Positions 19,503 through 20,749 of a DNA stretch of 64,000 nt are shown piece by piece. The notes beneath the pieces are model-generated. The model was not told the DNA's origin, searched no databases, and saw only the letters and a program-made list of their open reading frames with translations. The first letter of the stretch is position 1; each line of letters opens with the position of its first letter. Source of the stretch: a virus (Duplodnaviria > Caudoviricetes). The position numbers and the translations under genes are program-made. The stretch is taken from IMG/VR virus record IMGVR_UViG_3300021963_000022; one strand, 5' to 3'.

Positions 19503-20111
19503 ATGCCGTATAAAACAGATATATTGGGATGGATGGTTGAGTCCGAGTTAAAAGTCTTAGAGACTATTGCAAAACAAGTTCCTGTCAATGGAAATATTGT
19601 AGAAGTAGGATCAATGTTTGGTAGAAGTGCTGTTTGCTTTGCAATGTCAGCAGATCCCAGTGTTACCATCAATTGTATTGACTATTTTCCTACTGATATG
19701 AGACAACAGCATGGTTGTTCAGATGAGGATTCAATTAAAAACAGTTTCCCTATTGCTGATAAACTGTATAATGTTGAGCAAGACTTTATAGAGAATACCA
19801 AAGAGTTTAAGAATATCAATATGATAAAGGGTGATAGTCCGCATATATTAGTATATACTCCTGATCCTATTGATTTGTTTTTCTTAGATGCAGGGCATGC
19901 CAATCCTAATGATTGGGACAATTTATGTCACTTCATACCCTATATGAAATTGAATGGTATTATTGCAGGACATGATTATCACCCTACACAGTTCCCTGAT
20001 GTATGTGAGAATGTTAGACGATTAGAAGAATTATTTGATATTAAAGCGGAATTATATCCCGGCTCAAGTATTTGGTCTATAAAAGTGACTAAATTAATAA
20101 ATAAAGTATGA
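19503..20111 (+). CDS. Class I SAM-dependent methyltransferase
   Basis: VEVGSMFGRSA (motif I), LFFLDAGH and AGHDY. Confidence 0.85.
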   Translation: MPYKTDILGWMVESELKVLETIAKQVPVNGNIVEVGSMFGRSAVCFAMSADPSVTINCIDYFPTDMRQQHGCSDEDSIKNSFPIADKLYNVEQDFIENTKEFKNINMIKGDSPHILVYTPDPIDLFFLDAGHANPNDWDNLCHFIPYMKLNGIIAGHDYHPTQFPDVCENVRRLEELFDIKAELYPGSSIWSIKVTKLINKV

Positions 20112-20203
20112 AAACTTTTGTTTTGTTAGTTATAGGAGTCTGTATTGCTGTATGTATATACTGGCTAATGGACTGGCAAAGTCACCATGAAGATGGTGAG
20201 TAA
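20108..20203 (+). CDS. Small membrane peptide, 31 aa (MKTFVLLVIGVCIAVCIYWLMDWQSHHEDGE)
   Basis: ATGA overlap with the upstream stop and one hydrophobic segment. Ends where the tmRNA acceptor piece begins. Confidence 0.45.
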   Translation: MKTFVLLVIGVCIAVCIYWLMDWQSHHEDGE

Positions 20204-20552
20204 AGTTATTGCTGTACGAAGCAAAGAGAAAAGTGTCTTGGAAGGGGGTGCGAATCCCCCCAGGTCCACCATAAGGAAGTTTATGAATATTGAATGGTAT
20301 CACGTATTGTTATGTTTAGCAGTTCCGCTAAACTACTTTTACTGGATAGTATTACATAGATTCTTTATGAAGGGCCTGATATAGATTCGACAGGGCAACA
20401 AGTAAATTAGTGGACAGCTCGGCAAAGCAGAAGCCGTTAGGGTTGGGGGAACTCGGCCGTAGAAGCAAAAAAGTAATCGCAAACGATTCACAATTCCTAT
20501 TGGCAGCAAACGCCTAATAGCGAGGTAGTTATACCTTGTAACCAAAAATAGC
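20204..20552 (+). ncRNA. ssrA: Circularly permuted (two-piece) tmRNA: acceptor piece ~20204-20271, intervening segment 20272-20371, coding piece 20372-~20552
   Basis: T-arm GGGGG-TGCGAAT-CCCCC (20244-20260) is followed by CAGGTCC-ACCA (20261-20271). This pairs 7/7 with GGGCCTG (20372-20378) and includes G3:U70. GATTCGAC motif follows. Tag frame GCA AAC GAT...GCC TAA TAG at 20479-20520. Piece ends are approximate. Confidence 0.93.
20283..20384 (+). CDS. Putative 33-aa hydrophobic peptide inside the tmRNA intervening segment
   Basis: AAGGAAG SD at 20273-20279, ATG 20283. Stop TAG lies inside the 5' end of the tRNA-like domain. Confidence 0.45.
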   Translation: MNIEWYHVLLCLAVPLNYFYWIVLHRFFMKGLI

Positions 20553-20576
20553 ATAGGGACTTCGGTCCCTATTTTT
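20553..20576 (+). terminator. Intrinsic terminator after tmRNA
   Basis: ATAGGGAC-TTCG-GTCCCTAT followed by a T run. Confidence 0.85.
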
Positions 20577-20721
20577 CTGGGTATTGCCATGTCCAAGTAC
20601 CGTCTTTTCTGTATAAGCGTTTTCTTCCTGTGACGGTAGCAGATAATTTTCCTGCGCTTTTTCTTCCATTTTCGGCAGCAGTAGGCAAAGAGGATTATGA
20701 AACAATTTAATTGTTTCACGG

Positions 20722-20749
20722 AAAGGTCACTAAGGTGACCTTTTATTTT
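20722..20749 (+). terminator. Intrinsic terminator
   Basis: AAAGGTCAC-TAAG-GTGACCTTT followed by TATTTT. Confidence 0.75.

Follow-up and report, generated by a model that had tools for sequence, protein, structure and literature searches.

Permuted tmRNA genes are well established, including in aquatic phages such as the OM43 phage Melnitz (PMC9004378; PMC11915505). The intervening segments (IVSs) that separate the two pieces of such genes have been found to hold a tRNA-Ala gene or a repeat element in a 2025 tmRNA database paper, which also describes group I introns with homing-endonuclease genes in tmRNA and in which protein genes of the IVS are unmentioned (PMC11915505). The nearest precedent for an ORF in the excised spacer of a stable RNA is the IVS of the Coxiella burnetii 23S rRNA, the S23p ORF of which lacks a good ribosome binding site (RBS), appears to be untranslated in vivo and is decaying (PMC4990558). 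A published description of a protein gene in the IVS of a tmRNA was not found in full-text literature searches. The IVS of two-piece tmRNA has been treated so far as a throw-away linker; our finding is that approximately one quarter of the sampled distinct phage spacers encode small proteins under selection.

The locus lies in a window of 64,000 nucleotides from an IMG/VR virus record (IMGVR_UViG_3300021963_000022). The record spans 180 kb and is 52% complete according to CheckV, so the window is a fragment of a large uncultured phage. It has a GC content of ~36%, and the majority of its genes are on the + strand, as are the tmRNA pieces, the IVS and the two small genes described here. A whole permuted (two-piece) tmRNA gene occupies positions 20204-20576, based upon Rfam, ARAGORN and reading of the sequence. 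The Rfam model RF04321 (tmRNA_permuted) matches 20210-20517 over model positions 1-213 with 101 bits against a cut-off of 47, and ARAGORN reports a "Permuted" tmRNA at 20179-20608 with the tag ANDSQFLLAANA. The acceptor piece (20204-20271; RF04321, ARAGORN and fold) contains the T arm (20244-20260), the acceptor 3' strand CAGGTCC (20261-20267) and an encoded ACCA (20268-20271), which places the CCA end at 20271. It is followed by an IVS of 100 nt (20272-20371; ARAGORN domain limits and predicted fold) that is removed on maturation and is predicted to form a long, imperfect hairpin. The coding piece (20372-20576; Rfam, ARAGORN and terminator scan) opens with the acceptor 5' strand GGGCCTG (20372-20378), which pairs with 20261-20267 in a 7-bp acceptor stem, GGGCCTG/CAGGTCC, with a G:T pair at position 3 (G3:U70). 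The tag reading frame (20479-20514; GCA...GCC) opens with the alanine resume codon GCA and closes with the stops TAA TAG (to 20520), and the terminator scan places a hairpin at 20553-20572. Compared with ANDSQFALAA, the form typical of the clade, the tag has two additional residues and a final NA instead of AA. Downstream, ~170 nt (20577-20749) between this terminator and a second terminator-like hairpin (20721-20744) hold no convincing ORF. No SmpB gene was found in the 180-kb record, so host SmpB would be needed for trans-translation. A group I intron or homing-endonuclease insertion was considered and rejected: tmRNA_permuted was the only Rfam match in the window, with no match to a ribozyme core, and Pfam and PHROGs gave no family for the IVS ORFs and no endonuclease domain.

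Within the IVS is a gene of 33 codons (20283-20384) for an aromatic-rich, single-helix membrane peptide, which we assign to family A, subfamily A1, on the basis of conservation and pN/pS. Its ATG (20283-20285) stands 11 nt after the CCA, its codons run to 20381, and its TAG (20382-20384) lies 13 nt inside the mature coding piece, in the acceptor 5' strand. A Shine-Dalgarno (SD)-like AAGGAAG (20273-20279) is located 3 nt 5' of the ATG in the 5' strand of the helix that closes the IVS, as judged from the sequence, the duplex with 16S rRNA and the fold; the duplex of AAGGAAG-N3-ATG with the 16S 3' end is calculated at -6.2 kcal/mol. An earlier note on this DNA had described an AAGGAAG after the CCA, an ATG at 20283, 33 codons and a TAG overlapping the tRNA 5' strand, and it was exact on each of these.

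With the SD and ATG held fixed and the interior shuffled, the probability of the frame staying open across the window's IVS is 0.16; thus, the window sequence alone is not significant, and comparison with relatives decides. Any argument from a single sequence is further weakened by the nature of the IVS peptides, which are short, hydrophobic and encoded by AT-rich DNA. A terminator-like hairpin inside the ORF (20314-20333) was rejected as a functional terminator, as it is not conserved and is broken in the relative L190. Since the changes that break it are conservative or silent in the protein, the constraint on the interior appears to act on the protein and not on RNA structure. For ten IVS ORFs, neither Pfam nor PHROGs yielded a significant family, and the ESM Atlas gave no usable match. 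Among GenBank phages, in which sequence searches found almost no relatives, blastn of the locus returned just a 72-nt match to the acceptor piece of Xanthomonas phage X1, and tblastn of both peptide subfamilies (A1 and A2) returned nothing. In a comparison with hok-like type I toxin-antitoxin systems, the window peptide is hydrophobic and its mRNA has a 5'-3' fold-back; several other IVS ORF families are soluble, and a scan of the IVS turned up neither an antisense promoter nor a terminator.

Relatives were collected from IMG/VR by pattern searches. A pattern for the T arm and acceptor strand matched at least 119 loci, and a second pattern with a variable gap matched at least 119 more. Among the matches listed, ARAGORN recognized 135 permuted tmRNAs with 111 distinct IVSs of 20-254 nt. 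These were grouped by shared 9-mers into 75 clusters, 46 of them of 80 nt or longer; clustering by global identity was discarded because it lumped unrelated AT-rich spacers. When 185,579 species genomes were scanned with the same pattern, the phage-type tmRNA was present, among the matches listed, on just two Bacteroidota MAG contigs of 20-23 kb, one from Crocinitomicaceae (L234) and one from Haliscomenobacter (L239), both of which are probably binned phage DNA. The spacer of L239 carries a homologue of the 23-aa peptide gene of L069. Permuted tmRNAs of Rhodobacter that were matched by the pattern have a 24-nt hairpin as IVS. Cellular matches being nearly absent, this clade of permuted tmRNA is essentially viral. 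The same clade occurs, unannotated in GenBank, in the cultured phages Xanthomonas X1 (L338; OQ427096.1, ~120979-121428), Pseudomonas PA_L9 (L339; PP869205.1) and Xanthomonas XacN1 (L340; AP018399.1), and the spacers of these three are of 112-126 nt and of the hairpin type, with neither SD nor ORF.

The spacers fall into two types. Approximately three quarters of the distinct spacers are plain hairpins, NAAGCATATT...AATATGCTTNTGAT, which open with NAAGNA, a sequence resembling an SD. The remaining quarter begin with [T/A]AAGGAnnnTTT-ATG and are filled by an ORF. An ORF spans the IVS in 25 of the 46 clusters of at least 80 nt, against 10.6 +/- 2.6 in dinucleotide shuffles of the whole IVS (maximum of 21 in 300 shuffles), and the antisense strand of the 46 clusters has six spanning ORFs. 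Where an SD (duplex of -4 kcal/mol or stronger) is accompanied by a start codon at a distance of 8-16 nt from the CCA, the spanning ORF is almost the rule: 15 of 17 such clusters have one, against 1.6 expected from interior shuffles (Poisson-binomial P=3.7e-17), and the two exceptions also hold ORFs, one over the first half of the spacer only and the other from an ATG further on. As a group, the spacer ORFs bear no relation to one another. Hydrophobic peptides of 23-41 aa predominate among their products; some are soluble proteins of 50-60 aa, and one is Cys-rich. Outside family A the ORFs mostly stop inside the IVS, eight at the conserved TGA of TGAT and three at -12 nt. Taken together, six of these further families have variable sites of 13/8/29 by codon position (P=7e-4).

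Family A provides the evidence for selection on the window's own gene. Subfamily A1 comprises the window, L019, L053 and L190, as well as L331, L332, L334 and L337 from metagenomes, where it was searched with a pattern covering the 3' end of the IVS and the acceptor strand only and hence blind to the ORF; a further metagenome match (L336) was dismissed as a chance match in GC-rich DNA. The ORF is intact in every complete IVS of A1 retrieved. Copies diverge by up to 18% at the nucleotide level, and the sole indel is in the SD-ATG spacer. Among the seven distinct A1 sequences, variable sites number 10/2/12 by codon position (binomial P=0.005 for the deficit at second positions), and pN/pS is 0.27 in frame, with a value of 0.46, also low, in the first off-frame. 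Subfamily A2, with 19 distinct sequences and the consensus MFENWHWVYMWGIL..NY.FWI.KSLFD, has a pN/pS of 0.39-0.48 in frame against 0.82-1.09 off frame when the codons fixed by the search pattern are left out; its variable sites (14/14/18) are saturated rather than periodic, so that coding support in A2 comes from pN/pS only. M1, W5, N17 and Y18 are conserved in the alignment of A1 with A2, the homology of which is moderate (hhalign probability of 70%, E=4e-5). The earlier note had proposed a comparison of ORF conservation and dN/dS in the spacers of related phage tmRNAs; in the comparison as carried out, the frame is kept and pN/pS is 0.27-0.48. Its claim of a protein-coding ORF hidden in the IVS is borne out by this purifying selection, by the recurrence of ORFs across non-homologous spacers and by stand-alone copies of the gene beside the tmRNA, which are described below.

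In none of 16 IVS variants does family A have a stop inside the IVS; termination comes 12-66 nt past the start of the mature coding piece. As this is beyond the RNase P site, the complete product could come only from unprocessed RNA. The C-terminal tail varies with the tmRNA frame, and part of the product is thus probably unconstrained. A profile search of 1.84 billion representative proteins gave 13 matches at E<=0.001, and the nine that were inspected are short (35-83 aa), most with C-terminal tails resembling translated tmRNA 5' sequence, so family A appears to be confined to a tmRNA context. In one metagenome gene call (protein P0013), the family-A frame is open from the IVS through the body of the tmRNA to the tag's own stop (...NDEVFALAA), and the gene caller had therefore reported a 75-aa "protein" in which peptide and tag are fused.

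The gene also exists outside the IVS. In six other phages (L042/L288, L320, L308, L319, L313 and L322), A2 is a stand-alone gene directly before the acceptor piece. It has an SD of its own there and also a stop of its own, which abuts the tmRNA gene, and the IVS of these phages is another ORF or a hairpin. Between an IVS copy of A2 (L107) and an upstream copy (L042) there are five synonymous and two conservative non-synonymous changes. The linkage is to the tmRNA and not to the neighbours, as upstream genes differ in every phage with family A. Family G likewise uses both positions, with a 52-aa IVS protein in L025 and an upstream homologue in L023 (56% identity, E=3e-18), and the upstream copy in L023 still ends in the sequence of the helix 3' strand, ...TCTTTATGAT. 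A third candidate for a family in both positions (L176 and L151) was rejected, as no significant alignment was obtained. Being so tightly linked to tmRNA, whether inside the IVS or in front of the acceptor piece, family A may have some connection with ribosome rescue.

The position directly upstream of the acceptor piece is itself a recurrent site of small genes. In the window it holds a gene for a 31-aa hydrophobic peptide (20108-20203), the ATG of which overlaps the stop of the preceding gene (ATGA) and the stop of which abuts the 5' end of the acceptor piece. A second small hydrophobic ORF ending at the start of the acceptor piece, as the earlier note had it, is indeed present, and since a homologue occupies the same position in L215 (55% identity, E=1e-13), this ORF appears to be a real gene too. 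Other families of small genes fill the slot in relatives, among them a recurrent 28-aa TM family (L015/L074/L082) and a recurrent 43-aa basic family (L041/L052/L063). In L218, L151 and L234, the slot holds a gene for a 67-aa CspA-like cold-shock protein (RNA chaperone) with its end ~68 nt before the CCA. A search for related loci by way of the upstream 202-aa protein gave none. In the relatives L331, L332, L190 and L019, TATAAT- or TATAAATA-like boxes are present ~60-75 nt before the CCA, just 5' of the acceptor piece, which suggests a dedicated promoter at this position; in relatives with the TATAAT-like box, the acceptor piece would then effectively serve the peptide message as its 5' UTR. 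In the window, the upstream small gene occupies that place and a search there for a sigma-70-like promoter gave none, so transcription from upstream probably reads through the whole unit.

Spacers turn over rapidly relative to the tmRNA that surrounds them. ORF-type spacers are dispersed over a tree built from the tmRNA parts: 15 changes are needed, at least nine of which are forced by well-supported branches, and ORF-type spacers cluster no more tightly than in shuffles. Near-identical tmRNAs, such as those of L039 and L069, carry unrelated spacers, and identical helix ends, TAAGGAAGTTT...AGTTTCTTTATGAT, surround unrelated ORFs in the window, L042, L098 and L065. As judged from these comparisons, the IVS of this virus-specific tmRNA clade is a stem-closed, exchangeable slot, the content of which is a plain hairpin in some phages and, in others, a small gene from any of numerous unrelated families. 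In L019 (5000-5500), the acceptor piece and IVS are almost identical to those of the window and the mRNA-like domain is different, with a tag of 27 residues, ANVNKTVTVSGKNLKFSARSAKEALAV, called by ARAGORN in place of ANDSQF..LAA; L083, L106 and L107, and protein P0012, are further cases. The observation suggests modular exchange of the two tmRNA halves, or a second tag type in the clade.

The helix that closes the slot is common to all IVSs; it stacks beneath the acceptor stem, and a conserved TGAT separates it from G+1. Of 70 independent types, 96-100% have IVS positions 2-8 paired with positions -6 to -12, and 81-87% of the same 70 have positions 9-11 paired with -13 to -15. The helix covaries, with up to six pair types per position, and shifted registers pair mostly at 20-60%. 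In the window, fold and covariation place the 5' strand of the helix at 20270-20292, where it takes in the SD and AUG together with the first codons, and the 3' strand at 20347-20369, where it also codes for the last IVS-encoded codons. The two strands pair in the predicted fold of the window's precursor (MFE of -51.3 kcal/mol, z=-3.1), and the SD and AUG are paired in both the MFE and the centroid folds, so initiation would be hindered. The closing helices of ORF-type IVSs are weaker than those of the hairpin type (-6.9 against -10.4 kcal/mol, P=3e-5); that they are weaker but kept would fit a compromise between a structure for processing and access for the ribosome. With the SD and AUG in the closing helix and the stop in the acceptor 5' strand, a ribosome on the ORF and a folded tRNA-like domain would be mutually exclusive on any one molecule. 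The physical part of the earlier note's premise, that translation of the precursor competes with its folding and processing, stands on this geometry: the SD and AUG are in a conserved closing helix, and the stop is in the acceptor 5' strand beside the RNase P site.

We consider it probable, at roughly 0.78, that the IVS of the window is a real gene for a single-pass, aromatic-rich membrane peptide of ~30 residues (family A) that is translated from the unprocessed transcript. The disposable spacer of a stable RNA would thus very probably also serve as a messenger RNA. Dual use of the tmRNA precursor, which the earlier note had also put forward, is supported at the level of the genes, as the excised spacer holds a real ORF with an RBS. 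In the mechanism that we propose, the peptide would be made from the tmRNA transcript before processing. The SD and AUG would be the first bases made after the CCA and would later pair with the ORF's own 3' end, so that initiation would most likely be co-transcriptional or occur by breathing of the weakened closing helix. A ribosome on the ORF would melt this helix and, at termination, also the acceptor stem and the RNase P site, and the tRNA-like domain and the RNase P site could not form while it was there. Once the ribosome had gone, folding and cleavage of the RNA would give the two pieces of the tmRNA. A single molecule would then serve for making the peptide and for maturing into tmRNA either one after the other or one to the exclusion of the other.

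That the frame is a chance opening in an AT-rich, structured spacer, with AAGGA being only a strand of the processing helix and no protein made, is the explanation we find hardest to credit. The frame is open in 16% of shuffles, hairpin-type IVSs begin with a similar NAAGNA, and the SD and AUG are paired, all of which would be expected of such a spacer. It would leave without explanation the 15 of 17 spanning ORFs where 1.6 are expected, the purifying selection confined to the ORF frame, the hairpin within the ORF (20314-20333) that is broken in L190 by conservative or synonymous changes, and the occurrence of the same protein outside the IVS with its own stop. We think it very improbable that the ORF is a cis-acting leader, in which the act of translation matters (for instance, by delaying folding or processing) and the sequence of the peptide does not. 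The fixed position of the ORF relative to the helix, the variable C-terminal tails and the many unrelated ORFs in the same place would suit a leader, but amino-acid sequence is conserved within families (pN/pS of 0.27-0.48, and five synonymous against two non-synonymous changes between slots), and the same proteins persist where their genes lie outside the IVS.

Other readings accept the gene and concern what the arrangement is for. A regulatory switch between peptide and tmRNA, as inferred in the earlier note, is plausible and unproven. In the form in which translation of the IVS ORF sets the ratio of peptide to mature tmRNA, or in which processing yields a stop-less message whose product is tagged so that the level of peptide reports on tmRNA maturation or activity, we regard it as doubtful. 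It would account for the SD and AUG in the closing helix, for a stop at or beyond the RNase P site, for helices that are weakened yet kept in ORF-type IVSs, and for family A lacking an IVS-internal stop in 16 IVS variants and having its own stop when outside the IVS. If the arrangement were a tuned regulator, one would not expect the majority of the other ORF families to have their stop within the IVS, unrelated ORFs and plain hairpins to swap among close tmRNAs, or the same proteins to work from outside the IVS. A still more specific circuit, which we consider improbable, would be self-referential: the excised family-A spacer would be a stop-less mRNA, the ribosomes stalled on it would be rescued and the peptide tagged by the tmRNA of the same precursor. 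If this were true, untagged peptide would accumulate only while precursor processing or trans-translation capacity was limiting, and the phage would have, built in, a sensor of how active ribosome rescue is in the infected cell, or a feedback on that activity. For the rapid replacement of unrelated ORFs and hairpins by one another, a switch would be no better an account than a passive cassette slot. To that last possibility, in which the gene is real and the IVS and upstream slots are tolerated landing sites filled by recombination between co-infecting phages, with no functional link to trans-translation, we give slightly less than an even chance. The nine or more gains and losses on the tmRNA tree, the near-identical tmRNAs with unrelated IVSs, the same helix ends around different ORFs (L001, L042, L098 and L065), the use of both slots by many unrelated families and the hairpin-only IVSs of cultured relatives would all be accounted for; the apparent restriction of family A to positions beside or inside tmRNA genes, despite its changing neighbours, is not what a mere passenger would lead one to expect. 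As this reading addresses the purpose of the arrangement, it is compatible with our preferred explanation of a real gene expressed from the unprocessed precursor.

Genes in the spacer make the tmRNA precursor bifunctional, as both a messenger and the precursor of a stable RNA. With them, the IVS becomes a new place, and one that is simple to search, in which small phage genes escape annotation pipelines. They also provide a natural setting in which to study how ribosomes and tRNA-processing enzymes compete for a single transcript. Furthermore, conserved tmRNA arms together with the closing helix constitute a defined recombination slot, by which the exchange of cassettes can be traced among uncultured aquatic phages.

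Several features of regulatory and processed RNAs bear comparison with this locus. SgrS/SgrT and RNAIII/delta-haemolysin each combine a functional RNA and a small peptide in one transcript, with the coding part within the mature riboregulator; here, the coding part is a discarded spacer and the RNA product is tmRNA. The release of mRNAs in mitochondria is punctuated by tRNAs, and the window's message similarly lies between sites for RNase P and for tRNA 3'-end processing. The mRNAs of hok-type type I toxins are subject to fold-back inhibition, and the IVS message likewise has an SD-bearing 5' end that pairs with the 3' end of a short message for a hydrophobic peptide; both resemblances are structural only. 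Group I introns of tmRNA also place an ORF in a segment that is removed from the precursor (PMC11915505), although the window has no ribozyme or self-splicing, its segment lies between permuted halves, and its class of ORFs encodes tiny, non-enzymatic peptides rather than mobility enzymes. The 23S rRNA IVS with S23p shares with the tmRNA spacer a stem-closed segment excised from the precursor of a stable RNA, an ORF inside it and the behaviour of an acquired element; it is cut by RNase III, whereas the ORFs of tmRNA IVSs have an SD, purifying selection and high diversity (PMC4990558). The closest likeness is to other permuted tmRNA genes (RF04321, Melnitz), which have the same order of acceptor piece with CCA, IVS, 5' acceptor strand and tag frame, an aquatic phage as host and an IVS removed by tRNA-processing enzymes. 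The IVSs described for them are hairpins that encode no protein, or contain a tRNA-Ala gene or a repeat element, whereas the IVS of the window would be a protein gene under selection with its own SD.
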